A stretch of 64,000 nucleotides of DNA from an uncultured Desulfobacteraceae bacterium (GTDB lineage: Bacteria; Desulfobacterota; Desulfobacteria; Desulfobacterales; UBA2174): assembly GCA_937982505.1 (NCBI GenBank), contig CALJLV010000086.1, positions 10,990 through 74,989 of the forward strand. The letters run 5' to 3'. The stretch's first letter is position 1. Every line of letters begins with the position of its first letter. The position numbers were made by a program, and so were the translations under genes. The notes under the pieces are model-generated. The model did no database searches. It was not told where the DNA came from and saw nothing but the letters and a program-made list of their open reading frames with translations. This document shows, in pieces, positions 8,722-49,705 of this stretch.

Positions 8722-11205
8722 ATGAATCCCCTCACCGACGGAATCAGGATCGACATGGGTCTTGACCTGTTCGCCAAGGGCTTTGCTCCGGCCGAGCTTG
8801 AGAGCGCTTACTACGATCTGATCTCGGACCGGGAGCAAGAACGGCTCTTGTTTGAGGCGGCCAGCCTGGACGAGGTTGACGAATTTTACAACGATGGCGA
8901 ACCCGACATGGTCATGGAGTCCATCAAGGTCAAACGGTTTGCCCAAACCGAATCGAAGATGCGGGCACTGGTGCGCGTTTTGAACACACAGGCCCTAAAG
9001 GGCATTGCGGCCCTGGACGCACAGATCGGGCCACCTCGAAAGTCCGGGCTCTTCGCCACCGTGACGGTCCAAATCCCGATGACCGACGGCCAGATCCTTT
9101 CCATCGTGTTTCATTCCCCGACCGGGGATGAAAAGAAGATCCTGCCCGACGACATGATCGTGGCGTTTCGATGGTTGCTGAACAAGCGCGACATCACCCA
9201 CACGGTCAGCCCCGAGTGGGGCAAAGATGTGAGCCTCCAGACTGTGGCCAAGCGCGTGATGCAGATCGTGGCCAAAAACTCCGAGGCGTTTCAGCGCTCA
9301 CAGTCCGAAATCCAGGCACAGAAGGACGAACTGGCGACGGTGGAGCAGAGCGTCAAGGATATCGATGCCGCCAACCAGCAGACCGTGGCCCAAATCGCGG
9401 ACATGAAGATCGAGGCCGAACAGGTCGAGGATACCATCGAGGCGACCCGCCGGCGGCTGGAAAAGGTCCGCCAGGAAAACGACGACCTTGAGGCCCAGCT
9501 TGAGGCGCTGCGGAAACACAACGCGGAACGGGATGCACGGAAAAAAGAGGGTGCAGAACTTGTTCGCCTCAACGCCGTCGGGCAGGCCCGTGTGCCCGGG
9601 GTGCGGTTACAGGACGCCGAAGAGACCGGCAAAATGGCCGAAATGCTTGACCTGGGCGAGATCACCCAAGCGGAATGGGATGAGTTTGTCGCCGACCTGT
9701 ATGCTTCGGGCAAGGCCAAGCGGCCCGAACCGGAAAAGGTCGACGGCGGGACCAAACCGCCTAACGTGGTTGATCCGGCCGACCTCAACCCGACCGACCC
9801 GACCGACTATGCCAAGATCCTGGCCGATCCGGCGCTTCAGTTGGAGTACCAGGACATCCTTGATTCGTTCTTTCAGGAACGGTTCGCCAAACTTATATCC
9901 TACATGAAGGAGGACGGGTGGATCGAGCAAGGGACTGGCCTTCAAAAAACGGTGGGTGGCAAGCAGTACAATATGATGTCCTACTTCAAACAGGTTGGCG
10001 CAGGCAAAAACATTGTCGGGGCCAGTTATGAAGTCTTCAGCGGTAAGGACGTGGTCTTTGACCACCTTGACGATTTGGGCCACGACGTTCAGGCCCTTGC
10101 TACATGGATCAACAGCGCGGCAACCGGTCCCGAAGTCGGCATCCTGCCCCCCGCCGAACAGATCGACGGCAACCCGGCGAAGCGCGCCGCCAAGATCCTG
10201 CACTCCCTGGGCAAAGCCGAAGCCGCGATGAAGGACGATTTCCACGTCAAGCTCAAGAGCGGGGCCTATCAGGACCTGAGCATCGAGACCCACGACGAAG
10301 GCGGTGACAACCGGCGGATCTACTTCACCCATTACATCGAGGAGGGTGGAGATTTGATCATCGATTCCGAAATGGTGTTCCAGACCAACATCTATACCGG
10401 GTATCTGAAGCTGGCAGAAATCGGCTACCGCGGCCCAATGGGCGAGGTCCGGCGAACTTCCATCGGCAGGGCGGAAAAGTCGTGGGCGAACACCTTTTCG
10501 AAGAACCTGGTGGATCAGGGGTTTGAGAAGGGGAAAGAGGCCGGCGAAGAGGTTGCGCCCGAGCCGGCGCCCGAGCCAGAAAAAGAGAAAATGCTTGATA
10601 TTCTTAACGGAACACCATGGGCGACACAACGGAAACGGTTCGCTGAGCACATGATCGAGAGGGGCTTTCGGATGATCAATGCTATTGGCGGCGTTGATCG
10701 ATCCGCGATGGTTCAGACCGAATTCTCAAAAGAATTCTGGAGGGGCGAAGAAGTTAAAGAAATTGAGGTCGGATTGACGATGAATCCCCCTAAAAACGAT
10801 GTCAGGGTAAACATTGTTTCCTATGCGGCCCGCGAGTCACTTGTCCGCGCAGGTGGCAAGGCGGGGGAGGATGTCCAAAAAATGTTTGACCGTGCCTATG
10901 AGAAAATCAATGAGCATGAACAAGCCATGAAGCAAGCCGGATTTTTATTGGAGCCGGCCCCGCAACCTACCCCCGAACCCGAAGCAACCGGCCCCGACCC
11001 CAACGAGACTGCGGCCCTCCAGATCCTTGATTCCATCATCGGGGGCCAGTTCGGCAACGACACGGCCGGCATCGATGCGAAGCTGGACGAAGCCGCCGGC
11101 CTGCTGGAGGCCCTGGGCAAAATGGACCTGTACGACGACCGGCTGAATGCCGCGGCCGATGAACTGACCAAGCAGTTGGCCGAAAAAGCGAAGGAGGTGG
11201 CGTGA
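8722..11205 (+). CDS. large (827 aa) coiled-coil virion-associated protein, first gene of the polyvalent block (DarA-like role inferred from position only)
   Basis: GGAGA RBS. Long uninterrupted ORF with a central coiled coil (nt ~9290-9560) and Pro/Glu-rich linkers. No catalytic motif recognised. Confidence 0.6.
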   Translation: MNPLTDGIRIDMGLDLFAKGFAPAELESAYYDLISDREQERLLFEAASLDEVDEFYNDGEPDMVMESIKVKRFAQTESKMRALVRVLNTQALKGIAALDAQIGPPRKSGLFATVTVQIPMTDGQILSIVFHSPTGDEKKILPDDMIVAFRWLLNKRDITHTVSPEWGKDVSLQTVAKRVMQIVAKNSEAFQRSQSEIQAQKDELATVEQSVKDIDAANQQTVAQIADMKIEAEQVEDTIEATRRRLEKVRQENDDLEAQLEALRKHNAERDARKKEGAELVRLNAVGQARVPGVRLQDAEETGKMAEMLDLGEITQAEWDEFVADLYASGKAKRPEPEKVDGGTKPPNVVDPADLNPTDPTDYAKILADPALQLEYQDILDSFFQERFAKLISYMKEDGWIEQGTGLQKTVGGKQYNMMSYFKQVGAGKNIVGASYEVFSGKDVVFDHLDDLGHDVQALATWINSAATGPEVGILPPAEQIDGNPAKRAAKILHSLGKAEAAMKDDFHVKLKSGAYQDLSIETHDEGGDNRRIYFTHYIEEGGDLIIDSEMVFQTNIYTGYLKLAEIGYRGPMGEVRRTSIGRAEKSWANTFSKNLVDQGFEKGKEAGEEVAPEPAPEPEKEKMLDILNGTPWATQRKRFAEHMIERGFRMINAIGGVDRSAMVQTEFSKEFWRGEEVKEIEVGLTMNPPKNDVRVNIVSYAARESLVRAGGKAGEDVQKMFDRAYEKINEHEQAMKQAGFLLEPAPQPTPEPEATGPDPNETAALQILDSIIGGQFGNDTAGIDAKLDEAAGLLEALGKMDLYDDRLNAAADELTKQLAEKAKEVA

Positions 11206-11546
11206 TGGCCCTCGGATTCAAGGAAAAACGCGAGTTACAGCGGATCGTTTCGACCAAGCAAACGGAGCTGGGCGCCGGCGGCATGCCGTTTAAGGCCAAG
11301 CGCGAGGCCCAAAAAGCCATGGCCGACGCCCTGACCCGTCTCAATGCGGCCATCAAGAACAAGCCCGACCTGGCGGACGAGAACCAGAAGCTGGCCGACC
11401 TGATCGCGGGAAAGTTCAACGACGTGCCGCCCGAGCGGTTCCTGGCCATCCTCAAGGAGATCGTCAAGGAGATCGGAGACGTCGATCCGGTCAAGGAGCC
11501 TACGATTCGGTACATCGAGGCCAACGCCGAAAAGTCTGCTGCATGA
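11202..11546 (+). CDS. small helical protein
   Basis: GTG 11202 or ATG 11205 overlaps the previous stop, behind AAGGAGG. Lys/Glu-rich. Confidence 0.55.
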   Translation: MMALGFKEKRELQRIVSTKQTELGAGGMPFKAKREAQKAMADALTRLNAAIKNKPDLADENQKLADLIAGKFNDVPPERFLAILKEIVKEIGDVDPVKEPTIRYIEANAEKSAA

Positions 11547-13402
11547 CCGACGCCGCCTTTGTTACCAATCTGGTGCGGGAAGCGGATCATCTCTCCGATT
11601 TTGCCGGGGCGTTTGCTCGTCTTTTCGGATTCGAACTTTCTCATTTCGAGGAAGCGCTTGAGTCTTGGCAAGAGGCAAACGAAATGCTGGCACGGGTGAA
11701 GGCCGCCACCGATCCAATGGACAGGTTTGAGGCCTGGCAGGTATTATCCGGCTGGACCGGGTGGAAGAGGAGCATCGTTCAAAACGCGGTTGGCCAGGAG
11801 GAATTTCAAAATCTTTCCAGCCAGATCGTCTCTCTGAGCCCCGACAAGCCGCTGGGCCAGATCGCGCACGAAATTTATCTTGAGGCCGGCACCAAGGCGC
11901 TGGAGAAAATTCCCGATTCTTCTGCGCGGTACAACGAGATCCGGTCCCGTCTTTCGGAGCTGGATCAACAGGCCAAGAAAATTCTCACCGACTTGCAAGA
12001 GCGGTACGAGGACGAAAAGGACCGGATCAAAAAAAAGAGCGGGCACAAGGACCTGCTTGAACGGAAAAATGCGATATTGCTCGTTTTTTGCGATACCAGG
12101 GAGCATTTGTATAAGGCACATCGTCAAGGTGACTTTACCCTTGACGAACTCAAGCGCCGCCTGGATGAGGTCAACGTCGAGGAATCGCGTGAACTGGATC
12201 CTATCTGGAAGAAATTGCATTCGATTTCAGAACGCATAGACCAGTTGATGAACGACAACATGAGGGCCAGGGGCGAAGCCCTGAAAGATGTCGATGCCGA
12301 AAAGATCCGACTCATTGATGAATCGGCACAGATCGAGAAAGAGTTTTTCGCCTCTGTGATCAATGCCGTTCTCGAAAAATCCGAGGTGTCGCCCGAAGAG
12401 GCCGCGGCCTGGGCCGAAAAGCAAGAGTTCAGCGACGCTGCCAGGAGGCGCCTTGAAAAAATCGGATACCCGGTGGAAAGGGTACGACAGGACATGGCCG
12501 AGTTCTACCGGGCGGTCAACGGGCGCCTGGGAAAGGTGGATCTGGGCGCGACGCGGGGAAATCGCGCCTCTGCCAGAATAGGGGCCGGAGAAGTGAAAAT
12601 GACCGGCCGGTTCACTAAAACGACCCTTTGGCACGAGATGGGGCATCTGCTTGAACGCCACCAGCGGCTTTACCGGCTGTCGAATCACTTCCTGGATACC
12701 AGGACCGGCCGGCAGCAGGGCACGAGGCCCAAGTCGCTTCGGGTGCTGACCGGGATAAAGAGTTACAAGGCCGACGAAAAGGCGTATCCGGACGACTTCA
12801 TCGATCCCTATGTCGGGAAATGCTACCAGAACGGCACCACCGAAGTCTTTTCGATGGGGTTTCAACACTTTGCGTCTCCGGCAGAGGCAGCAGCTCTGTT
12901 TTCCAGGGACCCGGAAATGTTTCGCCTGATGGTGGGGATTATGTGTACCCCGATGGGAGAAATTGAGCGCGAAAACATTGGCAAGGTCATTCAGGCGGTC
13001 GAAAAGAAAAAGACGAGGGAAGCCGTCGTCAAGGAGTTTTTCAAAACCCTTGAGAAAAAGTCCAAGGGGATCGAGACAATGGTCGAGGGGACCATATTCA
13101 GGCTTCAGCAACAAGACCGGTGGGGCCAGAAACGGCCTGATTTTTACACCGTCGAGTGCCAAAAAAACGGCGCATGGAAATGGCTGGCGACTTTCAAATC
13201 GATCAAGGCGGCCAGGATGTTTTTATACCTGATCGTCTACGTCACAGAAGTTTCCGGCGTAGACCGGGCCCGGCAGCTCGTCGCGGATCTGATGGATGTC
13301 CAGCGGGGGAAAATCCCCTACGGGATCTTTGATCAAGAAAATCCGGTTGTCCCCGACATTCATCCCGATTCCATCCCTAAATCAATCCAAGAGGCAGCAT
13401 GA
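11543..13402 (+). CDS. zincin-like metallopeptidase domain protein (polyvalent-protein-associated type)
   Basis: HEMGH (HExxH) motif at nt 12642-12656 within TLWHEMGHLLERH. ATGA coupling to both neighbours. Confidence 0.7.
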   Translation: MTDAAFVTNLVREADHLSDFAGAFARLFGFELSHFEEALESWQEANEMLARVKAATDPMDRFEAWQVLSGWTGWKRSIVQNAVGQEEFQNLSSQIVSLSPDKPLGQIAHEIYLEAGTKALEKIPDSSARYNEIRSRLSELDQQAKKILTDLQERYEDEKDRIKKKSGHKDLLERKNAILLVFCDTREHLYKAHRQGDFTLDELKRRLDEVNVEESRELDPIWKKLHSISERIDQLMNDNMRARGEALKDVDAEKIRLIDESAQIEKEFFASVINAVLEKSEVSPEEAAAWAEKQEFSDAARRRLEKIGYPVERVRQDMAEFYRAVNGRLGKVDLGATRGNRASARIGAGEVKMTGRFTKTTLWHEMGHLLERHQRLYRLSNHFLDTRTGRQQGTRPKSLRVLTGIKSYKADEKAYPDDFIDPYVGKCYQNGTTEVFSMGFQHFASPAEAAALFSRDPEMFRLMVGIMCTPMGEIERENIGKVIQAVEKKKTREAVVKEFFKTLEKKSKGIETMVEGTIFRLQQQDRWGQKRPDFYTVECQKNGAWKWLATFKSIKAARMFLYLIVYVTEVSGVDRARQLVADLMDVQRGKIPYGIFDQENPVVPDIHPDSIPKSIQEAA

Positions 13403-16400
13403 TGGATTCATACGATATCGTTGTGGAAACGATAGACGGGCCTGTCAAAATCCTGATCGATCCGACCGAGTACGACGAGGCCGCGAGGGTGCGGATCGAA
13501 TCCTACGGCGGGGCCGAACTGCCCGCGATGTGGTTGCGGCGATATGCGGAGCGGGCCTCCGGAATGCGCGGCGGCGGGGTCAGTCTCGAATACGACAGTC
13601 CGGAGAACATCATCGCTGCTTTGATCAAGGCCGGATCTGATCCGGAAAGCCGGATCACCGGCCATGAAATCCGCTGGGGATTCGTGCCGGAGAACGAGGA
13701 CATGGTGGCAGAATCCGCCGACGACGTGTTGTTGCTACCGGCGCCGGAAACGCTGAAAGAAAAAATAGGGCGGATCAACGCGAAGAAGGCCCGGCAGACA
13801 GCGAGCGCCGGACGGATTGCCAAGGAGGCCGCTGGCCGGCCGGTAGTCCTTACAGAAGTTGGAAATGATCGACGCGGGGTCCTGATCCACAAGAGCACCA
13901 AACGCCCTGGGTTGGTACAGGTTTCGCGATGGGATGATCGCGGATTCAGCGGTGATTCGACGTTCGCAACCTTTGAGGCGGCCATCCACGATGCGATGCA
14001 AGACGGTTACGAGGTACCCAACAAGGCGGCGTTCAACCGGGTTTCTCAAACCAGCAGATTCCGGGCATACGTCAAGGCAAACGATCTGTTTCATGACTAT
14101 AGGAACGGCAAGCGCGGCGAGGGGGTTATTCACCTTCCCGATGGGATGGTGACCGAATCAGCATACGTCGATGCCTTGGCCCAAAAGACCGGCCTTGGGA
14201 TTGAAGAGGCGGAACGCCGGTGGAATCGGGCCAAGAAAATTGCCGAAGGGCAAACCGACATGACCGAGGACGACGGCGATGAATTTTGGGCCTATGTGAC
14301 CGGAGTGTTCAAGCGATCGATGGGGGTCCTGGAGGCGGCGGCTCTTGGTGGCTACAATTTTCGAACCGACCTGGCCCGGGCCGACGACATTGACGATATC
14401 TCGGAAGTTTTCCGCAAGCTATTCGGTGCCCCCCCGTCGCACAATTCGCCCTATTTCAAGGACACATTCACATCCGTCACGATGAAGATTGCCGACATGG
14501 TGCCCCGGGGCGCCGTGGACCCCGAACGGCTCAAGACCGCCCATGCGCGCATGAGGGCCGCCAAGGCCGGCGTTTTAGACAAGCGCAAGCCGATCTATGT
14601 CTTTGAGATGGGCAATGGCAAGTACAAGGTCCTGGACGGCAACACGACCCTTCACGCCCTGCTTGAATTGGGCGAAACCGAGGCCGTGGTGGAGGTCAAA
14701 AAGAGCCTCAAGCAGCAAGTCCCCGACCAGAACTCAATCGATGCGGTCTATGAGCAGGCCGAAAAAGCCCAGCCTCTCTTCAAGGCGTGGGCTGAGCGAT
14801 ACGCCGAGAGGACCGGCGGGAAGCTGATGCTTCGCCCTGGCCTCAAGGGGAAAAAGAGGGCCGGAGAGAAGGTCGCCAACGATTATGGCGGGGTTTCGGC
14901 CCGGCTCACCGATGTTGTCGGCGGGATGATCATTTTCGACACGGTGGAGCAAGTCGCCGCGGCCTACCGGATGATTGTGGCGGATCCGGCGGTTTACAAG
15001 GCCAAGAACCGATTCGAGAAGCCGACCAGCGACGGCTACATGGATGTCTTGTTTGCCGCCAATGTCGGCGGGCATCTGTGCGAACTCCAGCTCAACACCG
15101 AGGCCATTCTCGCCGCCAAGGAAAAGGGGCTGGGGCACAAAATCTATGAAGTGAAGCGCCAGATTGACCCCATAGCCAAGGATGTCGAGGCAAACGGAGA
15201 CCTGGCCTACATGGCGATGGGATACTCCGAGGAATTGCGGAAGTTGAGCGTGAAGTATTACCGCAAGGCCGCGATGTCCGATTCCAGTTCATCGGCGAGC
15301 AGCATTGCCTCGGATTCGGAAACCTCAGAAACATTGGACCGGATCCTGGCGAAGCTGTCCGGATCGGTGATCTCAACCCATTTCGACATAGACCTTCCGT
15401 CCATCCGAAACACCTTACCGCAAGACCGTTCGATGGCGAAGGCAACGTCTTCCTTTTCGCCGAACCAGAAATTATCCGAGAGTGACATTTCCCCTCCTTT
15501 GTTGGGTTCCGAAAATCTTACCAGAGCGGGCAAAAAGGTCAACGGCAAAGTAATCGTGGGCCGGCCGACGCGAAGCTATTTGAGCGATGATCGGATGCTC
15601 TACCTGCAATACGCCGTGGTCGAGGCCGCCGACTTGGTGACCAGTCACACCGAGGCCATGGGGTTGAGCGATGAATTCCCGCAAGAACTCCAGCCCCGCG
15701 ACCGGACCCGGGATGCGATGGTGCTCCAGGTCGAAAGAATCTCGAACAAGCTCAATCCGGACCGGATGGGCGGATCGCTCCAGGCATCGACGGGGTCGCC
15801 TATTGTCGGCCCGGATCTGATCGTGGAAAGCGGCAACGGCCGGACCATCGCGCTGCGAAAGCGCTACTCCCGCGATGAAGCCCCCGAGTACCGGGCCTGG
15901 CTGGCGGTCAATGCGGCGAAATTCGGGCTTCCCCGGGGAGAAGTGGAAAAACTCAGCCGGCCGGTTCTGGTGCGGGTCCGTCTCAACAAGGACATTTCCA
16001 GGATGGACGTGGCGGAAAAGTCCAATGCACCCGACATGGGCACCATGAGCCCGGCGGAACTGGCCGTGATGGATGCCCGTCGCCTGCCGGATGTCGCCCT
16101 GGACGCGCTGCGGCCGTCTGAGGACGGCGATTTTCTCAGCGCGGGCAACAGGGCATTCATGGATAAATTCGTCGCCCTGTTGGGCGCGGGTGAGATTTCC
16201 GGCCTGACCACGAAAAGCGGGCAGGCCACAAAGCAGCTTGCGGACCGGGCCAAGGCCGCGGTGTTCCAGCGGGCCTACGGGGACGCGAACCTGTTGGCCC
16301 TGGTGGCTGAGGAGGCAAATCCGGATCTCAAGAACGTACTGGCCGCCCTGACCCTGGGCGCCAAGGAGTTCGCCAAGCTCAAGATCCTGCCCGATGCCAA

Positions 16401-18708
16401 AGAACTGGCCGACAAGTTGACCCGGGCGCTGGTGGCGGGGGTTGGCCTGGTGCGCCGATCTCGAACCGGAGCGCAACCGATCGAGGAAACCATAGGGCAG
16501 TCGAGGCTTTTTGAAACCGTGCCCGAGGATGCCAAACACATCGCCCGGTACATCGATGCCAATATCCGGCGCCAGGCGCGCATGGGGGCGGTGTTCGGGC
16601 GCATGGCGGGGATCTTGCGCCAGTTCTACCTGGACCAGCGGCAGAAGAAAATGGACGGACGGCCGCCGGAGCCAGAGCCGACCATCAAGGGGGCGCTGGA
16701 CCGGGCCGCGAAGGAAAGCGAGCCGCAGAAAGGGCTTTTCGAGTCGGCCGGGGACTGGAAGGAGAAAATCCTTGCCGCCGAGTCGGTCGAAAATATCGAG
16801 AAGGTGTTCGATGCGGTGGGGATGAGGAGCGTCCAAAAACGAGAGAACCCGTTTAACAAATCTGTGGTCCGAAATGAAGTTTACCACGGCGGAAAAACCA
16901 ATAGAACCGAGTACAAACCGAACGATAAAGGGTTGATCTTCTTTTCCGAAGATCGGCATTACGCCGAATATTTTGGGGGTAAGGTAAATTCTGTTTTTTT
17001 AAATATTAAAAAACCACTTGACCTTACCGGGTGGAGCCCGGACGCATATATTTCGAGGGAAGAATGGGCGTCGTTTCTTGAGCGCAATGGAGTTGATACA
17101 GCAGAACTAAGGCTATCCGAAGGCGAACCCCTACAGCTTGTGTCTCAGCACAAAGACGGGGACGCGCTTGTGGGAGAAATAAAATTCGCCGGGTTCGACG
17201 GAATCAAGATGAACGAGTACGTGGAGGGATTTGGGAGCACCGTATCCTATGCCGTATTCAGCACCAATCAGGTCAAAATTATTGGCGACGATACATCAAA
17301 AAAAATCCCGAAGAGGTTCGACATAAAACATTGGGCAGCCGAAGACTATGAGGATGGCACTTTCAGCGTCGAGGACGGAAAGGGTGATTGGGTGTCCGAT
17401 GTCGAAGCATCGAACAAAAAAGAGGCGGTTGAAAAGGCGTACAAAGACAAAATAAAATTTCTCAAGCAGTTACACAGGGATGAAATACCGGCCGGAACCG
17501 ATATCCCCGATAGTTTGCCCGAAACCGGCATCCTCGAATCCGCCGGCCGGCCCCCGATGAAGTTCAAAACCAAGAAATTTGTGCTCCAGGACCGCTACCA
17601 ATTCCAGGGCATACCCGTATCGATCGAAAACAAGGCCGGGTCGGTCCGCAAGGGAACGGATTCGGACGGGCACGAATGGCAGACCAAGATGCGGTTCGAT
17701 TACGGCTACATCCGCCGGACCAAGGGCGCGGACGATGAGGGGATCGACTGTTACGTCGGCCCGGACCGCCAGGCCCAGCACGTCTATGTGGTCAAGCAGC
17801 ACGACATCGAGGCGGTCAAGGGGTGGGGCGGGGAGACCTGCCCCGAGTGCGGTGAGCACGTCCACGATTGCGCCTGTCCTGAATTTTTCGATGAGGACAA
17901 GGTGATGCTTGGTTTCCCGAACAAGCGGGCCGCGGTCGAGGCCTACCTCAAGCAGTACGATTCAGACCTTTTCCTTGGCCCGGTTTCCACCATGACGGTC
18001 GATGCGTTCCGGGAGCTGGTGACGGGGGATGAGGAAGAGGTAAAAATCCCGTTGCAGTTCGTGACCGAGGCCGCGGAGGTCAGAACACCGCTGACGGTTG
18101 CCGAAAATATTGAACGGGGACGCGAGGCAATGAAACGGGTCATTTCAAGGCATGTGGATGAGCCGCGGGCCATGTACCGGAAGGATTTAGGGTGGATCGC
18201 GTTTTATTGGGGGAGGGCCGGCGGACCACCGCCGAAGTGTAATGGTGGCCATGGTGTCGCCAAAATCATTGCGAAGCGTGACTGGGAGGGCGAGAACGAC
18301 CCAAGGTTTAAAGGGCAGACCGGCGCAAAGGTCGCCATGAAACTGGTTGATGTAATAGCCAGAAGTTCTCACCCCAAACGCTCCTATGGCCCGGTCGCTG
18401 GAACCCGCGTAGATTTGGAGCACGGGGGGTTTACAGCAGTGCTATCCCTTTTCAGGGGATGGGAGGAAGATGTTTGGCTGCTTTCGGGGTGGAAAAATAA
18501 AGACCTTGCTTCTGATGCGACCGGCGAGGGTAACGACTCAACCGGTGCTACGCACGACGGGCCTACACTTACTCGTTCCGTCGAGGGGGCAGATGGCAAG
18601 GTCTTTGAAGACAAGATACCACCGGAAGACGACGGTGTCAACTCGGCGGTTTTGGAGTCTGCATGGATCGGGATCTATCATTTGATGATCGGACAAAAAG
18701 ATGGTTGA
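13399..18708 (+). CDS. 1769-aa polyvalent protein (ParB-like / RelA-SpoT-like / DdrB-type ParB / ADP-ribosyltransferase / pyrophosphatase-like / BECR-type nuclease)
   Basis: Single uninterrupted ORF. Six recognisable enzymatic modules are listed separately, joined by Ser-rich and charged linkers. Confidence 0.85.
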   Translation: MMDSYDIVVETIDGPVKILIDPTEYDEAARVRIESYGGAELPAMWLRRYAERASGMRGGGVSLEYDSPENIIAALIKAGSDPESRITGHEIRWGFVPENEDMVAESADDVLLLPAPETLKEKIGRINAKKARQTASAGRIAKEAAGRPVVLTEVGNDRRGVLIHKSTKRPGLVQVSRWDDRGFSGDSTFATFEAAIHDAMQDGYEVPNKAAFNRVSQTSRFRAYVKANDLFHDYRNGKRGEGVIHLPDGMVTESAYVDALAQKTGLGIEEAERRWNRAKKIAEGQTDMTEDDGDEFWAYVTGVFKRSMGVLEAAALGGYNFRTDLARADDIDDISEVFRKLFGAPPSHNSPYFKDTFTSVTMKIADMVPRGAVDPERLKTAHARMRAAKAGVLDKRKPIYVFEMGNGKYKVLDGNTTLHALLELGETEAVVEVKKSLKQQVPDQNSIDAVYEQAEKAQPLFKAWAERYAERTGGKLMLRPGLKGKKRAGEKVANDYGGVSARLTDVVGGMIIFDTVEQVAAAYRMIVADPAVYKAKNRFEKPTSDGYMDVLFAANVGGHLCELQLNTEAILAAKEKGLGHKIYEVKRQIDPIAKDVEANGDLAYMAMGYSEELRKLSVKYYRKAAMSDSSSSASSIASDSETSETLDRILAKLSGSVISTHFDIDLPSIRNTLPQDRSMAKATSSFSPNQKLSESDISPPLLGSENLTRAGKKVNGKVIVGRPTRSYLSDDRMLYLQYAVVEAADLVTSHTEAMGLSDEFPQELQPRDRTRDAMVLQVERISNKLNPDRMGGSLQASTGSPIVGPDLIVESGNGRTIALRKRYSRDEAPEYRAWLAVNAAKFGLPRGEVEKLSRPVLVRVRLNKDISRMDVAEKSNAPDMGTMSPAELAVMDARRLPDVALDALRPSEDGDFLSAGNRAFMDKFVALLGAGEISGLTTKSGQATKQLADRAKAAVFQRAYGDANLLALVAEEANPDLKNVLAALTLGAKEFAKLKILPDAKELADKLTRALVAGVGLVRRSRTGAQPIEETIGQSRLFETVPEDAKHIARYIDANIRRQARMGAVFGRMAGILRQFYLDQRQKKMDGRPPEPEPTIKGALDRAAKESEPQKGLFESAGDWKEKILAAESVENIEKVFDAVGMRSVQKRENPFNKSVVRNEVYHGGKTNRTEYKPNDKGLIFFSEDRHYAEYFGGKVNSVFLNIKKPLDLTGWSPDAYISREEWASFLERNGVDTAELRLSEGEPLQLVSQHKDGDALVGEIKFAGFDGIKMNEYVEGFGSTVSYAVFSTNQVKIIGDDTSKKIPKRFDIKHWAAEDYEDGTFSVEDGKGDWVSDVEASNKKEAVEKAYKDKIKFLKQLHRDEIPAGTDIPDSLPETGILESAGRPPMKFKTKKFVLQDRYQFQGIPVSIENKAGSVRKGTDSDGHEWQTKMRFDYGYIRRTKGADDEGIDCYVGPDRQAQHVYVVKQHDIEAVKGWGGETCPECGEHVHDCACPEFFDEDKVMLGFPNKRAAVEAYLKQYDSDLFLGPVSTMTVDAFRELVTGDEEEVKIPLQFVTEAAEVRTPLTVAENIERGREAMKRVISRHVDEPRAMYRKDLGWIAFYWGRAGGPPPKCNGGHGVAKIIAKRDWEGENDPRFKGQTGAKVAMKLVDVIARSSHPKRSYGPVAGTRVDLEHGGFTAVLSLFRGWEEDVWLLSGWKNKDLASDATGEGNDSTGATHDGPTLTRSVEGADGKVFEDKIPPEDDGVNSAVLESAWIGIYHLMIGQKDG
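14470..14703 (+). other. ParB N-terminal-like domain
   Basis: KPIYVFEMGNGKYKVLDGNTTLHALLELGETEAVVEV resembles the ParB/Srx core (..v.DG.hR..A....g). Confidence 0.55.
14752..15162 (+). other. RelA/SpoT-like nucleotidyltransferase domain
   Basis: LKGKKRAGEKV ... RLTDVVGGMIIF ... DGYMDVLF ... HLCELQLNTEAILAAKE..GHKIYEVKR follows the order of small-alarmone-synthetase motifs (RIKS..S, D.aG.RII, GY.slH, EIQIRT...H..YK). Confidence 0.7.
15568..15993 (+). other. DdrB-type ParB-superfamily domain
   Basis: LQYAVVEAADLVTSH...ELQPRDRTRD...IVESGNGRTIALRKRY carries the QPRDR and GNGR signatures described for the P1 DdrB-like ParB clade. Confidence 0.6.
16846..17286 (+). other. ADP-ribosyltransferase-like domain (polyvalent-protein type)
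   Basis: VYHGG ... LIFFSEDRHYAEYF ... GIKMNEYVEG gives an H-Y-E-type arrangement. It coincides with a visibly AT-richer stretch. Confidence 0.6.
17572..18024 (+). other. inorganic-pyrophosphatase-like domain with inserted Zn ribbon
   Basis: PVSIENKAGSVRKG, DYGYIRRT and ADDEGIDCYV parallel the family-I PPase motifs IEIP.GS..KYE, YGFIP.T and DGDPLDVLV. CPECGEHVHDCACPEF is inserted. Confidence 0.6.
18091..18504 (+). other. phage Barnase-EndoU-ColicinE5/D-RelE (BECR)-like nuclease domain
   Basis: LGWIAFYWGRAGGPPPKCNGGHGVAKIIAKRDWEG resembles the WG....G.G..HI..KH signature of phage BECR modules. Confidence 0.5.
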
Positions 18709-18775: not shown

Positions 18776-19381
18776 ATGAACGGAGCTGCCATGTTCACCC
18801 CGTCTGTCAACAGCATCGCGATGGCCGTCGAGGCGAAGGGGTTCAAGGTTTTCCGCGGCGGTCCGCATGACCTGAATATCGTCGGGATCCGATCCGCCGC
18901 CGCCCGGCTGGACCAGTTCGACGACCTGATCACCGTTTTTTCCCGCCATCAAAACCAGTGGCTCTACTGGGCCTTTCCCGCCACGACGGATCCGGGCGCG
19001 CATTACCTGGAGCACCCGATCAACGAGGCGGGCACCGCCATCCTGGCCCCGGGCCAGTACCGAGGCGCGTACCGGATAGGCAAGCACCGGGGCGAATACC
19101 TGGCACTGGTCCAGGCCCGTCCGGTGACCGTGTTTCGGGACAAGAACCGGAACCGGCAAGTCGATACCGGTCAGATCACCGAAACGGGCCTTTTCGGCCT
19201 CAACATCCACCGGGCCGCATGGGACGGGAAATCGACGGTTGTCGGCGCATGGTCGGCCGGATGCCAGGTGATTCAATCCAGCCTGGACTTTGACATCTTC
19301 ATGGCCATGGCGAACGCGGGAAAAGCGGCCTACGGCAACGCATTTACCTACACCCTGATCGAAGAGACGGACCTGACATGA
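18776..19381 (+). CDS. YkuD-like (L,D-transpeptidase fold) putative cell-wall-active enzyme
   Basis: NIHRAAWDGKSTVVGAWSAGCQV fits the H...S.GC catalytic signature of YkuD domains. An alternative start at ATG 18791 has a GGAG RBS. Confidence 0.5.
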   Translation: MNGAAMFTPSVNSIAMAVEAKGFKVFRGGPHDLNIVGIRSAAARLDQFDDLITVFSRHQNQWLYWAFPATTDPGAHYLEHPINEAGTAILAPGQYRGAYRIGKHRGEYLALVQARPVTVFRDKNRNRQVDTGQITETGLFGLNIHRAAWDGKSTVVGAWSAGCQVIQSSLDFDIFMAMANAGKAAYGNAFTYTLIEETDLT

Positions 19382-22300
19382 TTCTTGAGCGAGCCATATC
19401 ATCGGACTTTTTGCACCTCGTATCCCAGATCCAGGCCGCCCGGACCATGGATGAAATCGAGTACGCTTTTCGCCAGGTCTTTTCCGCCGACTTTCCGGCC
19501 CAAACGGGAGACAGGAAGCGGGTCGGAATCATCGGCGATGCGGTGGTGGCCGCGGCCGAACGGATCGATGGCATCGACTACGAGTTGTATCGGGCCGCTG
19601 ATCCTGATGACGGCCGGGGCGCAATCCGTGTCGCCGATGCGGACGCGGGGCAGACCTACGACTTCACGGCCTACCCGTCTTTTGACGCGGCAGAGAAAAA
19701 ATTCGCGCAAACCATCGCCGATGCCCGCAAGGCCGGCGGCGAAGAGGCCAACCCGGGCGACCACAAGGACCCGAAAAGCGATTTCGGCCTGAAGGTCAAA
19801 GGCATCAAGGCGCGTGAAAACATCAATGCCATGGCCCGCGAGATTCTTGCGCGGGTTCAGGAGCCAGAAGATTTGACCGATGAGGACCGCCAGGTCCTGG
19901 TGCAGTATTCTGGCAAAGGCGGGCTCACCGAAAACAGCCAGTTCGAGTATTACACGCCGACAGGCGTTGCGGCGGGATGCTGGGACGCCCTGGCCTTGAA
20001 CGGATTCACGAATGGCAACGTCCTTGACCCGTGTGTCGGGGCTGGGGTCTTCCCGGCGACCAAGCCCAAGGGCGTGATCGTCACCGGAGCCGACATTGAC
20101 CCGGTGGGCTCAAAAATAGCTGCGCTTCTCAACCCCGAGGACGGAATTCAGACCGGCTCTTTTGAGGCCCTTGCCACCTCTACCCCCGATGACACCTTCG
20201 ACGCCGTGACCGGCAACGTGCCCTTCGGCGACGCCCGCGGCGCGGCGATGCACGACGACCCGGCCTACAAGAGCGAAAAGCGGATCGAGCGCTACTTTCT
20301 GCTGCGCGCCCTGGACAAAGTAAAGCCCGGCGGTCTCTGCTGCATGGTCGTTCCGACCAACATCGTCGGCGCCAAGGGGCCGAAGTGGGAGACCTGGCGC
20401 ACCGAGATATCCAAAAAGGCCGAATTCCTTGGCGCCCACAAGCTGCCATCCAAGACCTTTAAGAATCAGGGCACCGACACCGTGGTCGATATCGTGGTGC
20501 TCAAAAAACATCCCAAGGACCTGCTGGACAAAATCAACGACATTCCCTTTGACGCCCTTCAATCAGCCATGGTGATCTGGCCCGAATTCATCGAGGGCCG
20601 TTACTGGCTTGGGGAAGGAAAGCGCTTCATCCAGGGCGAATGGGTCCCCAAGGTCGAGGGGGAACGCTGGTCGCGGGAGGTGGTGGACGGCGATATCGAT
20701 TCGGCCGCGATCCGCCAAAAGCTGGCGGTCCGTTTCGATTCCCGAATCGACTGGGGCCTGCTGGACGCAACCCCGGCCGAGCCCAAGAGCTACATCGACG
20801 GGGACCGGCGAATCATCAACGGCCGGCAATACGAGATGCAAGACGGCCAGTGGGTTGTCGTGGTCGAGACGACCAAGGATGACATGGCCATTGACGCCGG
20901 CCGTTACGGTGTTGCCAAGCTGTCCGACCTGAAAGCTGCCTTTTCATCCCCGGACGGTCCGTTGCGCCTCTCATCGGATCAAGCCTTTGCCGTTTTCAAG
21001 TCCTGGCCCGACCTGCTTTCCCCGTTGCATAAAGACGCGGTGGAATTCGCGATGAGCCAGCCATCGGACAAGTTCCGGGAACAGGCCTACCGCGGCACGA
21101 TCATCGGCGGGCTTTTGGGCCGCCTGCAAGCCAACCCCGACGATATCGAGCGGGAACGGTTGCAAAACATGGTGGTGGCCGAGATAGAGCGTTTCGGGCA
21201 TCCCAAGGGCAACAAGATCCTCGTGACCGGTGAATCGTCCAGGGCCTTCGGGCTGTTTCTGAACGCAGTGGACGAGAAGGGCACCTTTTCGGATCTGCTG
21301 GCCGGGACCGTGGCCGACGACCGGATGCAGTTCAACAGCTCCGATATCCAGTCCATCGTCGAGCATCTTTTCATTCGTGAGGGAATCCGGGACATCGGGC
21401 TGGAGGACGTCCAAAAGCTCTACACCGGCGGGATGGGGATCGAGACCATGGGAGACCTGGCCGGAATCCAAAACGTCGCCCTGACGCCCGAGGGGTTCGT
21501 CATGCCCCTGAGCCGGTTCTCGTCCGGCGACGTCTATCCCAAAATAGTGGCCATGACCGACGCCATGGCCGATGAAGAAGACGAACGGGTCCGCAACAAG
21601 TATCAGGAGCAAATCGACCTGATTCTGAGCCGGCTGAAGCTCACCAAGCCCGAGGACATATACATCGGCCTCCAAGAGAAATGGTTTCCGAAGCAATACC
21701 TGATCGAGTATTTGCGAGCCAACGGATACCCGAATGTTTCTTATGGCCGATTCGAAACGCAGTCGGTCGAGGACGCGGTGAGCGGGAAGGTGAGCAAGGT
21801 TTCGAAATGGGTAGAGGATTTTGAAAGCCCGTTCGGCCAGTTCATCGGTATCGATGAACACAGGGGAGGGTTCCCGAAGCAATTCTTGAAGTACCTCAAT
21901 GGCGGCAATGTCACATCCAGCGGCGAAAACGCACAGGAGCGCATCGAAGCCTACAAGCAGGAAGTCAAGGCGATCACCGAAAACTTCAACGCCTGGATGC
22001 AACAACACCCGGACATGGACCAAGTCGGCAGGATATACAACCGCAAGTTCAACGCCTTCGTCGCCCACGACTACGAGATAACCCCGCTGGAAATAGAGGG
22101 GTTCACCGGGGACAAAAAGCCCCACGGCTATCAGAGCGCGGCCATTCGCAGGATGTCAGAGGAAGGGCGGGGGATTTTGGGCCTGGACGTTGGTTTGGGC
22201 AAGACCCTTGGCGCCATCGGCCTCCACCTCTACAACAAGCAGATGGGCCGAACCAAAAAGACCTGCATCGTGGTTCCCAATTCGGTCTTGTCCAACTGGT

Positions 22301-25300
22301 ATGTGAGCTGCGACAAGATGATCACGGACATGAACGACGTGCTTTTCGTAGGCGTTGAGCCGAAGATGGACAAGGACGGCAACATCGCCCGCAAGCCGGT
22401 GCTGGACGAAAGCGGCAAGCCGAAAACCAAGGCCAACGGCGAGCCCATGACTCAGCCTGTCCTGGTGAAGCGCAATAGCCCTGAAGACGTTTGGGAAAAG
22501 ATGTGGGAGATCCCGACCACCTCCAAGTCCCTGGTGGTGATGACCACCGAAAAATTCGGCATGATTCCGCTGAAACGGGATACCAAGGCCGGGTTTGCTC
22601 AAAAGATGGGCGAGCGGGCGCTGATTTCCGCCAAAATGGTTGCGGCGCTGTCCGCCGGAGACGGCAAAGAGGCAGAACGCAAAATCTCCTACGCCGACGA
22701 CAAGGACCGGCTACGCAACGAGGGCAAATATGCGGATGACGGGACCCGGAAAAAGGGCGAGCTGCCGTTCTTCGAGGACATGGGTTTTACCTCCATCATC
22801 GGGGACGAATTTCACCAGTTCAAAAACAGTTTCGAGGGGGGCGAACAAACATCCCAAATCGCCTACCTGCCCACGGCACCGAGTTCGAAGCGTGCATTAG
22901 ACATGACCATGAAGTGTTCCTACCTGCGCGAGACCAACGACGGCCGAGGGGTTTACGGGCTCACCGCAACACCGGTCACAAACTCCCCGATGGAAATTTT
23001 CAACATGCTTTCCTACGTGGCCCCGATGGAGGAATTCGAGCGCTTCGGGGTCTATACCGTCGATGATTTTGTCCGGGTGTTCGGCCACATCGAAACCGTG
23101 GACAAGGTGATGGTTTCCGGTGAGGTCAAAAGCAAGGACGGCCTGGTGGGGTTCCGCAACCTGGACGGGCTGCGCAACCTCTTTCATAAATACACCCTCC
23201 TCAAGACCGCCGATGACGTTGGCCTTGAACTGCCATCGCACGACGAAACCAACGAGGAGGTTGAACTTTCGGATCTTCAGAACGATATCTATGCCGCGCT
23301 CAAGGTGAATGCCGCGGAAGCCGCTACGCCGGGTTCCAAGAAAAGCATGTTTTCCGTGATTCGGCAGATGGACCGGATCACCACGGACATCGACCTGTAC
23401 CGGCGCAAGATGACATTCGTTTTCCGGGCCGAGGATCGGGAAAAGGTCGAGGCCCTGGCCAAAGAGCTGCCCTCAATGGTGGACGGATGGGAAGAGGGTG
23501 ACGACGGGAAGCAGGTCAAGGTAAAAGTGCCTTGCGTTCCGGAATTCAAGTCGGAAGGGAAAAACTTCGTCATGGTGGTGCCGGAAATGGCCGAAGAGCA
23601 TGTATCGGCCAAGCTGAAGCGCCACGGAATCGACGAAAACCACGTCGCGCACCCCCTCATGCCCAAGTACGCCAAATTGGTCGAGAACATTCGCAAGCAC
23701 ATCGAGTCGAACGGAAAGCAGATCGTGTTCACCGAGGAAAAGAGCCAGCACCAAAAGCTCAAGCGGATTTTGAGCCACCATATCCCGTTGTCCCGGGACC
23801 TGATCGGCATCATCAACGCGGATGAGGCGGCCGGTGACAAGATTCAACAAATTTCCGACCAGTACAACTCGGGCCAGGTCAAGATCATCATTGCGAACAA
23901 AAAGGCCGAGGTCGGCGTCAACCTCCAAAAGGGCACCACGGCGATTCACCACCTGACCCTGCCATGGACGCCGGCCAGCATCCAGCAACGCAACGGCCGC
24001 GGGGTTCGCCAGGGCAACAAGGCCGAGCACATCGACATCTACTATTACATGGGCAAGGGCTCATTCGATTACTACCGGCTGGACCTGCTCAAGCGCAAAT
24101 CGAGCTGGATGCACGATCTTTTCAACGGGGATGCGACCGAGGCCGAAAACGCCAATGCGATGAGCCAGGATGACATGCTGGACCTGCTGGCCGATGACCC
24201 TGAGGCGGCAAAGCGGCGGCGGATGGAGCGGCTTGCGAAGCAAAAGGCCGAGCGCGACGAACGGGAACGGCGCCGGCTGATCAACATGCTCCAGCAACTG
24301 ACCAACGTAGACGAGGCGTTGTCCAAGCTGGACGCGGCCAAGGAGACCCGCAAGGCCAACCTTGAAGAGAAAATCCCGAAGCTCGAAACCCAGATCGACG
24401 AAATCAAGGCGGCCGGCGCAAAGATGGAACCGGGCGAGGCCAAGACCGCCCTGGCCGACCAGATTGCCAAAAAAAAGGGGGAGCTGGCCGCGGCAAAAGC
24501 CAGCCTTTCGAACCTGGACGCAAGTTTCGAGAAAAAACGCCAGGACCTGGAATCGAAAAAGAAGCAGAGCCAGAACGTGCTGCGCATGAAGGCCAACAAG
24601 GGCGAATTGCCCTTTGACGCCTCCCTGGTGGACAATCCCAAAAACGCGGTGGCAACCCTTGACGGCACCCTTTATGCGGTGGGCGAGACCTACGAGGTCC
24701 GGGACGATGGCGGGGATCCGATTGGCATTTATCGAATCACCCGGGTTTTTGCCGATCCCAAGGGGGCCGTGTTTGACGAAGTCGTCTCCTACCGATACTG
24801 GAACTTTGCGAGACAGACGATCGAAGACCCGGACAACCCGGACAAATACTTGCACGTCGCAACGCTTGCCAAGCTGCCAAAAAACATGGTCAAGGTGGCC
24901 TATTCCGAGGCCGAACTTGCCCTCAAGAAGCTGCTGGCGACAAGCCATCAATACGTTGACCTGTTTGGCGGCGAAATCGATAAGGAAACCTTTGCGGAGC
25001 ACATACTTGAAATCACGCTCAAGGGCTATGGCCTGATCCGCACCGACGGCGGGTTCGCGTTTGACTACATGGGGGGCGAAAATGCCCCCAAGGTGGTTTT
25101 CCCCGAGCCGGAAAGCGAGGCATACCGCAAGGCACTGGCCGAGACATATCTTGACGTCAAGCGCACGGGGACCATCGGGACGCGGTTGTTGGACTTCAAC
25201 CAGATTATGGAGAAGTGTTTCGGAAACGACTTCCAAAACGCAGCCCTCGAATACGGCAAAAAAGCCACCGAGACCGACATTCGGGCCTTTTTCGCCGACT

Positions 25301-25922: not shown

Positions 25923-26315
25923 ATGATCGAGAAACCCACGAAAGAAGAACTTGACCGCCTGGTGGAGGAAGGGTCAACGAACAGGACCGCCGACGAATGG
26001 ATCGCCTCGATGCTCCAGGCTGTCCGTTCGACGCTGATCCGGAACCCGAAGCGATACCGGGGCTACGGCCCCTACTGGTGGTTGGTCAAAAAGATGTTCA
26101 TCGATGCCGGCGACCTGGCGTTCGGCGAACACCTGGACGCCCAGTGGATCGAGGCCCTGGACTACGGATCGGCGAAACACAACATGGCCGCGGCATTCGC
26201 CTATGAGGATGCCAGGTTTTTGACCATGCACATCCTGGAAGCCACGCATACTCTGATCGACGACGGCAACCCGGTTGAGTTTGTGAGCTCCGACGAAGAA
26301 ATGGAATTGCGCTAA
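25923..26315 (+). CDS. hypothetical protein
   Basis: AAAGGA RBS, compact 130-aa ORF between the giant gene and the portal-like gene. Confidence 0.55.
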   Translation: MIEKPTKEELDRLVEEGSTNRTADEWIASMLQAVRSTLIRNPKRYRGYGPYWWLVKKMFIDAGDLAFGEHLDAQWIEALDYGSAKHNMAAAFAYEDARFLTMHILEATHTLIDDGNPVEFVSSDEEMELR

Positions 26316-35291: not shown

Positions 35292-35963
35292 TTACCGCTC
35301 AGTAAAAACGCTGTGAGCTACCGGTGAGCTATTTCTTGTTGCCGGGTCGATCTTGCGGATAGGTTTTTTTGCCCGGTGCGACCTGTTGGCCACAAATAGT
35401 TTTATCTTGTCATATCGAGAATATACCCATGTCGTTGGGTGCCGCTTTTCCCCGATCAGCCAAAGCTCATCCGCCTTTATTGACGGGTCCCCAAGATACC
35501 GGAGGCATTGACCGAGATACCTTTCGGATAGGTGCCCAAGTTTGAACTCCACTATTACGGTCTTGCCGTCGCTGACCCCGTAAAGATCAACGATACCTGC
35601 GCCAATCGCAAACTGCTTCTTTTGCTCCCTCAGCCCATACTCGGAACGAAGAAATGGCATGATCGCGTTTTGAAACTCATCTTCCGACGAATATGTTTTT
35701 ATGTTTTTTGGTCGAGGGGCTACGATGCCGCGTCTTTCTATTTCCCTGATAAGATTTGTATTCCTTGCGTCAATCGCTTCAAGTATCCTTTTGTTTTGCA
35801 ACAACAAATCGTGATAGATAAGCATTAGGTCGACTTCGTTTTTTATAATGGCAAAACGCTTTTTGGCCTCTAAATAATTGCTCGTTCGAAGCGATATCCT
35901 TTTCCCTCCGCTTTGAGGAATTGAACAATAATAGACCCCGTTGTCTCTTTTATATACTGTCAT
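35292..35963 (-). CDS. PD-(D/E)xK (NucS/DUF91-like) nuclease with integrase-arm-binding-like N-terminus
   Basis: [21 protein letters not shown] is a D...E.K nuclease motif. The N-terminus [16 protein letters not shown]...[15 protein letters not shown] parallels the integrase N-terminus [16 protein letters not shown]...[15 protein letters not shown]. Markedly low G+C. Confidence 0.7.
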
Positions 35964-37000: not shown

Positions 37001-37224
37001 AGCCCGGCCCTCCTGGCAAGGTCGTTGAAAAGTGCATCCTCTTCGCCAGATCCGGCATTGTATTCGTCGATGCTGGTCCGGTCCACGACCCATCCACCCA
37101 CTGGCCGCTTGCGGGCCTTGATTGAGTCGGCCTCGATGAGTCGCATAAGGCTGTTGCGAGACATCCCGGCGTATTCGACCGCCTGGCGGATCTTGAGCCA
37201 ACGGGGGGGTTGCGCGTCATTCAT
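36994..37224 (-). CDS. xis: excisionase/AlpA-type HTH protein
   Basis: [31 protein letters not shown] is the excisionase-family HTH. It sits directly upstream of int. ATG 37224 is preceded by GGAG. Confidence 0.7.
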
Positions 37225-45936: not shown

Positions 45937-45951
45937 TTCATTCCTCGCGTT

Positions 45952-49695: not shown

Positions 49696-49705
49696 GGGTG
49701 CCTCC

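Follow-up and report, generated by a model that had tools for sequence, protein, structure and literature searches.

A putative capsid-delivered polyvalent protein of the P1 DdrB family carries a Tas1/Apk1-like RelA/SpoT domain among shuffled effector modules

Here, we describe a single large gene within a stretch of 64,000 nucleotides of DNA from an uncultured Desulfobacteraceae bacterium (the window, to which all coordinates refer). The gene is one unbroken open reading frame (ORF; 13399..18708, + strand) encoding 1769 amino acids (aa), and residue numbers below are those of this protein. Its ATGATG start has a Shine-Dalgarno sequence (aagagg) in front of it and shares bases with the TGA stop of the preceding ORF. 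The identical protein, minus its first Met, occurs in a public protein collection, where it comes from one 83 kb contig. Six recognisable domains with five different activities lie on this one polypeptide, as judged from Pfam, profile, Foldseek and homologue evidence, and the domain evidence is not a product of chance. The extent of the ORF, all 17 motifs quoted for it in a preliminary description, and the six domain calls made there, with their order, were all borne out. The ddrB-ParB, InPase and ART-PolyVal domains pass their Pfam gathering scores, while PBECR1 and RelA_SpoT fall below theirs; the calls other than these first three are carried by profiles, a structural model and homologues. 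NCBIfam gave zero matches for the protein. We consider it likely that the gene encodes a phage polyvalent protein, an enlarged homologue of DdrB of phage P1 that is produced late and, if P1 is a guide, travels in the capsid and is ejected along with the DNA, with independent enzyme modules strung onto a DdrB-like core (residues 738-1070).

This core is what ties the protein to P1. In BLASTP against P1 proteins, DdrB residues 44-391 match residues 738-1070 with 41% identity over 333 residues (E 6e-68). The match covers the combination that characterises P1 DdrB, a ddrB-ParB domain (residues 731-861, 15589..15981, +; Pfam PF18763, E 9e-33, above gathering score) and the middle region that follows it (residues 862-1110, 15982..16728, +; covered by phrog_5143, phrog_2299 and phrog_14693). 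The ddrB-ParB domain probably acts as a DNA-binding or nicking module gated by nucleoside triphosphate (NTP). P1 DdrB is a protein of 995 aa that consists only of the ddrB-ParB domain, the middle region and a C-terminal peptidase, whereas here roughly 1100 residues of extra modules have been added. The zincin-like peptidase, in turn, is absent from the chain and lies in a separate upstream ORF (11543..13402, +), which encodes a 619-aa HExxH (HEMGH) protein and whose stop overlaps the start of our gene. The metallopeptidase part of P1 DdrB (residues 781-987) matches residues 271-466 of this protein at E 1.5e-8; the 619-aa protein also matches the C-terminus of phrog_2299 as well as phrog_20397, and the Pfam MPTase model misses it. 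Because both parts of DdrB match adjacent ORFs, P1 ddrB is represented here by two coupled genes in swapped order, peptidase first. The same split, with the peptidase gene retained, is seen in relatives, both on a contig from a metagenome-assembled genome (MAG) and in IMG/VR phages.

The genes around this core form a cluster resembling the Dar system of P1. In order, it comprises a DarA-like gene (8722-11205, +; Pfam DarA_N, E 4e-30; NCBIfam anti_RE_DarA, E 4e-39 and below the curated cut-off; BLASTP to P1 DarA), a DdrA-like gene (11202-11546, +; phrog_1855, BLASTP to P1 DdrA), the metallopeptidase gene, the DdrB-family gene, a gene for a 201-aa endolysin-like protein or wall hydrolase (18776-19381, +; phrog_3000 and an endolysin PHROG), and genes for a DarB-like methylase/SNF2 helicase (19378-25911, +) and a Ulx-like protein (25923-26315, +), with the portal gene (26325-28016, +) directly downstream; the last three were identified by both Pfam and PHROG. 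The order darA-ddrA-ddrB is thus kept, with the peptidase gene between ddrA and our gene. The DdrB-family gene lies in a late + strand block between tail-fibre-like genes further upstream and the portal, is translationally coupled to the Dar genes, and combines two hallmarks of polyvalent proteins, several activities in one chain and a place among virion or late genes. Like the P1 Dar system (DarA, Hdf, DdrA, DdrB, DarB, Ulx), the cluster has DarB and Ulx homologues and is placed in the head-gene region; all its genes are contiguous, in contrast to P1, where darB and ulx are situated elsewhere in the genome. Within the window, we identified no separate counterpart of hdf. Since a scan of the window also revealed an integrase (35960-37201, -) and a CI-like repressor with helix-turn-helix and S24 domains (53695-54351, -), the element is, by its gene content, a temperate phage or prophage. 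The P1 Dar proteins have been described as internal and co-ejected with the DNA (PMC12810830), and the earlier proposal that the protein is delivered together with DNA finds support, by this analogy, in a P1 Dar-like cluster beside a portal gene.

N-terminal to the core lie two domains that appear to form a unit. The first (residues 360-445, 14476..14733, +) adopts a predicted ParB/Srx fold of the kind found in SbnI and free serine kinase. Library models gave it a single PHROG match at E 0.068, while a profile of residues 360-451 alone matches SbnI (E 2e-7) and Noc (5e-4) in the Protein Data Bank (PDB), and Foldseek against the PDB places free serine kinase and 1vk1 on the N-terminal domain of a model of residues 360-640. 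The initial ParB call therefore holds at the level of fold, though the signature Arg of the superfamily is missing. The family motif DGN(T/S)(T/S), DGNTT in our protein, aligns with DGVHR of SbnI and GERRW of Noc, and the Arg of the nucleotide-binding GxxR or DGxHR motif is absent here and from most of the family. Because the DGN motif is itself invariant across the family (G414 and N415 are fixed, followed mostly by T, S or H at the next two positions), the Arg-less motif looks like a derived function rather than decay. What is shared with the SbnI/SerK branch is the strand-helix core around the DG motif; what differs is the motif itself, DGNTT in place of the DGxHR that contacts nucleotide phosphate, and the setting, a short N-terminal appendage of an RSH enzyme. 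The likeness is one of sequence and fold. This ParB/Srx domain fused to an RSH module has no Pfam model.

The second domain of the unit is the RelA/SpoT (RSH) module, a predicted Tas1/Apk1-like pyrophosphokinase (residues 446-626, 14734..15276, +). Here too the library scores were weak. Pfam RelA_SpoT matches residues 499-582 at E 0.0025 and 18.5 bits (up to 21.7), below its cut-off of 27, a single-sequence PDB search with residues 380-634 gave E values of 9e-6 for Tas1 (6ox6) and 0.4 for Noc, and a word-indexed homologue search with residues 360-640 found zero, so that an exhaustive HMMER search was needed. Among 1.84 billion representatives, the latter yielded 2229 relatives at E<=1e-3, of which 629 reach E<=1e-10. 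Proteins of 1000-4700 residues are numerous among them, and in 52-53 of the best 150 the match spans both the ParB-like and the RSH part. In an alignment of 27 sequences of the 360-640 region, positions G414, K483, K491, D505, G546 and E562 are invariant; 18 of the 27 match Pfam RelA_SpoT at E<=0.01 and one homologue (P0154) reaches 29.2 bits. Against the PDB, the profile of this alignment retrieves Tas1/Apk1 (6ox6) at E 3e-25 and RelSeq, RelA, SaEAS, RelP and RelQ at 6e-11 to 3e-5, and its N-terminal part retrieves SbnI (2.5e-7) and Noc (3e-4).

Structure prediction points the same way. An AlphaFold model based on this alignment and covering all 281 residues (360-640) has a predicted local distance difference test score (pLDDT) of 93.7 and a predicted template modelling score (pTM) of 0.87; prediction from the single sequence was useless (pLDDT 41). 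In Foldseek against the PDB, Tas1 (6ox6_A) came first (E 2.4e-9, template modelling score 0.68 on our protein, 26% identity), followed by RelP, RelQ, SaEAS, Rel, CapRel and FaRel, and the top 39 matches were all RSH synthetases or RSH-type toxins, which argues for an RSH synthetase fold. RelQ and CapRel, the two structures proposed for comparison in the preliminary description, are thus among the matches of the model, behind Tas1. The top matches among viral models in BFVD were uncultured-phage proteins named 'DdrB-like', 'RelA/SpoT', 'ART-PolyVal-like' and 'Tas1'. Family profile and model together confirm both the RSH module and the first ParB-like domain.

Counted over 148 family members, the active site is well preserved. 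K483, D505 and E562 are the same in all 148; K491, Y547, D549 and Y583 are shared by 146, G546 by 144, H580 by 143, K574 by 136, Q564 by 134 and R487 by 132, and our protein retains every strongly conserved position. The residues taken as catalytic in RSH enzymes are complete (K483, R487, K491, D505, G546-Y547, E562 and Q564). By alignment to RelSeq, they include the Mg-binding Asp (D505) and the E-x-Q motif (E562, Q564), which we take to be D264 and E323/Q325 in RelSeq numbering. Because the strongly conserved positions are all kept, the core chemistry is expected to work, with a preference for donor and acceptor that is not deducible from these residues. It had been pointed out previously that the Arg of the G.R motif is replaced by Met in this protein, so that activity or substrate might differ. 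The loss of the Arg is not peculiar to it: the canonical residue is missing across the whole family (Ser or Thr in 131/148) and is Thr in Tas1, whose residues are read from alignments throughout. The Met itself (M510) is rare, being found in only 3/148. Likewise, an Arg three residues after the Asp is present in 97/148 and in Tas1, where our protein has G508, and at position 548 the usual Arg (131/148) is replaced by a Met shared by only 3/148. Lacking the family-typical arginines at 508 and 548 and having Met at 510, the module may possibly use an altered substrate with an intact catalytic core. The Arg508-type residue is missing from 25 of 42 members with a ParB/Srx partner and from 26 of 106 without one (odds ratio 0.22, Fisher p 1e-4, uncorrected for phylogeny), an association on which we do not rely.

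The closest known relationship of the module, judged by sequence and structural similarity, is to Tas1/Apk1, a (p)ppApp-synthetase toxin and type VI secretion effector of Pseudomonas aeruginosa (PDB 6OX6) that is its best match in both the profile and the structural searches. The two have in common the K/R-x-K residues for the ATP phosphates, the Mg-binding Asp, the G-Y pair and the E-x-Q motif, and in both Tas1 and our family the canonical Arg that follows the Asp gives way to a Ser/Thr-type residue. They differ in overall sequence (about 26% identity), in the family-specific GY(R)D and H..YE motifs, and in the Arg three residues after the Asp, which Tas1 and most relatives have and our protein lacks. 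Tas1/Apk1 and the MuF-fused phage enzyme Apk2 are, like our module, attached to a delivery vehicle, which is PAAR or MuF in their case and would be a Dar-type capsid protein here. Apk2 is a (p)ppApp synthetase that comes with an immunity protein, Aph1 (PMC10083569), and the Apk1 homologues characterised so far make (p)ppApp, (p)ppGpp or both (PMC12691689). The product of our module would be (p)ppApp and/or (p)ppGpp.

How the two N-terminal domains work together is a matter for speculation. The ParB/Srx and RSH unit recurs in 53 of the best 150 representatives, mostly within giant phage proteins and often with the ddrB-ParB domain next in line, and AlphaFold predicts the dyad as a single rigid body (pTM 0.87). 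Tentatively, and with more doubt than conviction, we suggest that the Arg-less ParB/Srx domain and the Tas1-like pyrophosphokinase make up one obligate two-domain enzyme, in which the former gates or targets alarmone synthesis, and that a capsid-delivered burst of (p)ppApp with depletion of ATP disables ATP-dependent defences. If so, the ParB/Srx domain might sense DNA or NTP on ejection, for instance as a gate, and the defences disabled could include the type I restriction enzymes that the neighbouring Dar genes counter. We found no description of the dyad in Iyer et al. (2017) or in a 2025 survey of Apk1 homologues, which supports its novelty only weakly, and when the dyad was searched by tblastn in 50,697 phage records (the collection used for all such searches here), Bordetella phage PHB04 was the only match. 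As a construct of 280 residues, the dyad is tractable for studying the products and control of phage-delivered RSH enzymes.

Alternatively, the RSH module could be a toxSAS enzyme that targets tRNA, like CapRel, FaRel2 or PhRel2. CapRel (7ztb, 9erv) and FaRel (8pu1) are indeed among the Foldseek matches (E 1e-5 to 2e-4), the acceptor site is unusual in lacking the family-typical arginines (G508, M548), and a block of host translation would suit an early effector. We nevertheless regard this as unlikely, given that the family profile ranks Tas1 about 14 orders of magnitude ahead of other RSH enzymes and that the best structural match is Tas1 as well; in addition, all characterised Tas1/Apk relatives act on free nucleotides, and the phage needs host tRNA for its own translation.

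Between the dyad and the core runs a Ser/Ala-rich linker (residues 627-730, 15277..15588, +) with an SSSSASS run at residues 629-635. The equivalent position in relatives is also rich in Ser and Ala, and pLDDT is low from about residue 630, making this a possible flexible or processing region.

Beyond the core, the protein continues with three further modules, the first of which is an insertion. Residues 1119-1368 (16753..17502, +), as defined by alignment to relatives, hold an ADP-ribosyltransferase (ART) domain and a small region without assigned family; residues of about 1300-1390 match no recognisable family in Pfam, PHROG or NCBIfam. The ART-PolyVal domain itself (residues 1161-1299, 16879-17295, +) matches Pfam PF18760 at E 1.2e-10 and 42.7 bits against a cut-off of 31.2. 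The whole insertion is missing from all close relatives and coincides with a dip in G+C content, to 0.45-0.50 at 16700-17500 in the window compared with 0.60-0.65 in both flanks; because of this low value, it was probably acquired recently from elsewhere. In an alignment of three sequences, H1163 is conserved with two other PF18760 members and the aromatic-F-S/T motif is present. The module gave zero tblastn matches in the phage records.

The second of these modules is a type I pyrophosphatase-like InPase domain (residues 1397-1545, 17587..18033, +; Pfam PF18823, E 4e-35), whose Pfam match comprises residues 1397-1469 and a second stretch at 121 bits against a cut-off of 26.8. In the PDB, it matches the C-terminus of the phage portal 9b41 (gp19) at E 1e-13. 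The two domains share PF18823 and the motifs IEN..GS.R, DYGYI and GAD.E.D, and the acidic metal-binding motif is intact, since the solved portal domain has GADGDEVDCFVG and FDEHK where our protein has GADDEGIDCYVG and FDEDK. They differ by an insertion of about 25 residues, the CPECGEHVHDCACP segment, which contains a CxxC...CxC zinc-knuckle motif (residues 1481-1494, 17839-17880, +), is absent from the portal domain, and within the InPase alignment occurs in the closest relatives only. The same CxxC...CxC motif can be seen in a DarB-fused InPase of an IMG/VR phage (L005, see below). The protein that carries the InPase thus varies, being of DdrB type in the window, of DarB type in related phages and a portal in 9b41; an InPase-fused portal was also noted in BcepF1 (Iyer et al. 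2017, PMC5512222).

The third module is a C-terminal extension (residues 1562-1769, 18082..18705, +) that is absent from close whole-protein relatives. It contains a PBECR1 domain (residues 1591-1701, 18169-18501, +) that matches Pfam PF18809 at E 8e-5 and 23.4 bits, below the cut-off of 27.6. The C-terminal 215 residues have nine homologues (E 1e-22 to 9e-29), which are solo proteins of about 250 residues, and PF18809 is found in seven of the nine. The Ser of the W-L-L-S/T-G motif is kept. The only well-conserved His of the family (in GVSHIIAKR), presumably the catalytic one, is replaced by Lys in our protein (K1622) and in one homologue, and on this account the domain may be altered or inactive.

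Comparison with relatives shows how readily such modules are exchanged. The nearest proteins, with 79-87% identity in the parts they have in common with ours, are only 1111-1318 residues long; they possess the N-terminal region, the dyad, the ddrB-ParB domain, the middle region and the InPase, and lack both ART and PBECR1. A syntenic cluster on MAG contig JBDRRP010000115, the only one found in a single-protein scan of GTDB genomes, identifies residues 1119-1368 as an insertion and 1562-1769 as a C-terminal extension. In relatives of 56-57% identity, the InPase is at the N-terminus instead. Three IMG/VR phages of about 80 kb (L005, L006, L007) have DarA, DdrA, peptidase, DarB, Ulx and portal genes in the same order; in these, a DarB of 2349 aa carries the InPase at its N-terminus (in L005, UViG_2667527945_000002, 9710-16759), and the loci fetched showed no DdrB-ParB or RSH match. 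The N-terminal region of our protein (residues 1-359, 13399..14475, +) contains no recognisable domain, has no match in Pfam, PHROG or NCBIfam and, searched as residues 1-379, none in the PDB; residues of about 1-305 vary even between close relatives, and the 79% alignment to the closest genomic relative begins at residue 306. Among the phage records, megablast of the gene gave zero matches, and tblastn of the protein matched 495 records in the DdrB-type and InPase-type regions, with the 30 matches listed all falling within residues 682-1118 and no record spanning more than about a quarter of the protein. The exact combination of domains was seen in no other protein examined.

These comparisons bear on the RSH and InPase modules, whose neighbourhood the preliminary description had called unusual and which could be read as a functional couple. 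The first point is countered by the catalogue of Iyer, Burroughs, Anand, de Souza and Aravind (2017, J Bacteriol, PMC5512222), who described polyvalent proteins of phages and conjugative elements and listed RelA/SpoT, InPase, DdrB-ParB, H-Y-D ARTs and PBECR1 as phage-type modules, with DdrB-ParB, PBECR and RelA/SpoT occurring together in Helicobacter prophages. The second point would make the two modules a make-and-break pair for a signalling nucleotide, in which the InPase might trim or recycle an alarmone or pull the reaction forward. Both modules lie in one chain, six of the eight closest relatives keep both with the InPase at either end, and an action of InPase on nucleotide-like substrates has been suggested (Iyer et al. 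2017, PMC5512222). However, an InPase occurs in only 3 of the top 150 RSH relatives, its position is not fixed (it is N-terminal in the more distant ones), and the same InPase is found on DarB in the three syntenic phages, visibly with its zinc-knuckle insert in L005; the fetched cluster of these phages has no RSH match. InPase is found on portals as well. Nor does the chemistry fit: what RSH enzymes release on moving pyrophosphate to a 3'-OH is AMP and not free pyrophosphate (PPi). We therefore think a make-and-break pair very improbable and conclude from the sequence comparisons that the RSH-InPase neighbourhood is a product of cassette shuffling and not a conserved enzyme pair.

Taken as an enlarged DdrB, the protein would be loaded into the capsid with other Dar proteins by a DarA/Hdf-dependent route, may be cut into pieces by the upstream peptidase, perhaps at Ser-rich linkers, and would enter the cell at infection, before phage gene expression. 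There, the dyad kinase would move the beta,gamma-pyrophosphate of ATP to the 3'-OH of a purine nucleotide, and making (p)ppApp and/or (p)ppGpp in this way would drain ATP and bring the metabolism of the host to a halt. The ART-PolyVal domain would ADP-ribosylate host targets with NAD+ and the InPase would hydrolyse PPi or a nucleotide pyrophosphate, while the RNase-fold PBECR1 domain may contribute in altered form or not at all. The modules would act side by side on nucleotides, DNA, proteins and RNA of the host, and we regard them as independent effectors rather than as a pathway.

Several points weigh against this account. Packaging, ejection, processing and all enzyme activities are steps that we infer, the delivery from P1 and from the polyvalent-protein model, and P1 DdrB carries in its own chain the peptidase that is a separate gene here. 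At the level of active sites, rare residues occupy three substrate-side positions of the RSH module (G508, M510 and M548), and the acceptor specificity of Tas1 relatives is not readable from homology; the acidic residue of the ART H-Y-D triad, E1273 or D1266, could not be placed with confidence from the three-sequence alignment; and PBECR1 has its Lys in place of the family His. Finally, a toxin expressed late in a temperate phage might be expected to come with an immunity gene, and none of the Tis1 or Aph1 type was found among about 40 ORFs of the window scanned with Pfam (no HD or SAH domain), a scan that small ORFs and Tis1-like binders would escape.

Some of these points would suit a protein whose main role inside the head is structural or protective of DNA, as is thought for the P1 Dar proteins, and whose enzyme modules are decayed passengers of little or no activity. 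The replacement of the PBECR1 His by Lys, the ParB/Srx domain without its signature Arg and the three atypical RSH residues can be read in this way, as can the divergence of the ART, with zero tblastn matches. Yet the RSH catalytic core is fully conserved, the acidic motif of the InPase is intact and the ART keeps its conserved His; the DGN motif without Arg does not vary within its family, as expected of a derived function; and a long unbroken ORF together with 79-87% identity over the parts shared with relatives implies selection. We accordingly give decayed passengers very little credence. Least probable of all is a protein that is not ejected and works within the cell that makes it, or in the lysogen, for instance as a toxin for superinfection exclusion or abortive infection: the phage is temperate (integrase, CI-like repressor), many toxSAS enzymes are defence toxins and a defensive reuse of some polyvalent proteins has been noted as a possibility (Iyer et al. 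2017, PMC5512222), but the gene stands in the late + strand block, coupled to Dar genes and outside the lysogeny region, no antitoxin or immunity partner appeared among the ORFs scanned, and the P1 homologues are described as internal and co-ejected.

As an enlarged DdrB that is probably delivered from the capsid, the protein belongs to a class known since 2017 and is an elaborate further example, not a new kind of system. With the polyvalent proteins of Iyer et al. (2017) it shares a giant chain of unrelated effector domains, a location among late or virion genes and rapid shuffling of modules; it differs in that the zincin peptidase is a separate, coupled gene and not a domain of the chain. 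What is new lies in the details, namely the Arg-less ParB/Srx domain with its Tas1-like partner, the split peptidase, the low-GC ART cassette, the zinc-knuckle InPase and the Lys variant of PBECR1. A Tas1/Apk-type alarmone-synthetase domain within a P1 Dar-like cluster of probable capsid-delivered proteins joins two separate lines of research, on (p)ppApp toxins and on injected antirestriction proteins. The locus also offers a clean natural case of module swapping, in which entire ART, PBECR1 and InPase cassettes distinguish relatives with 79-87% identity in their common parts. For annotation, we suggest naming the gene a DdrB-family polyvalent protein rather than a new signalling system.

Some minor observations concern neighbouring genes. 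A 495-aa antisense ORF wholly within the gene (15472..16959, -) was dismissed as a GC-rich shadow of the coding strand. In the DarA-like protein, a DUF6908 domain (residues 490-601) follows DarA_N, and DarA length varies from 639 aa in P1 to 827 aa here and 1032 aa in a related MAG contig (L001). A stretch of the DarB-like protein (residues 40-116) matches the C-terminal end of what is a separate 611-aa protein in that contig (13650-15485), which implies further fusion and fission among genes of the cluster. The 201-aa endolysin-like protein has no Pfam or NCBIfam match; by eye, it shows a His...SAGCQV motif resembling YkuD-type L,D-transpeptidases/peptidases and may be a virion-associated wall hydrolase. 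Far from the head genes, in the lysogeny/early region, a gene for a ClpP-family protease stands directly beside that for the CI-like repressor (53119-54351, -, for the two). The early region at 43698-51285 (-) further encodes an SF2/SNF2-type helicase (43698-45404) and, in an arrangement that looks like an SbcCD-like pair, an SMC/Rad50-like ATPase (47158-49695) and a calcineurin-like phosphoesterase (49969-51285).

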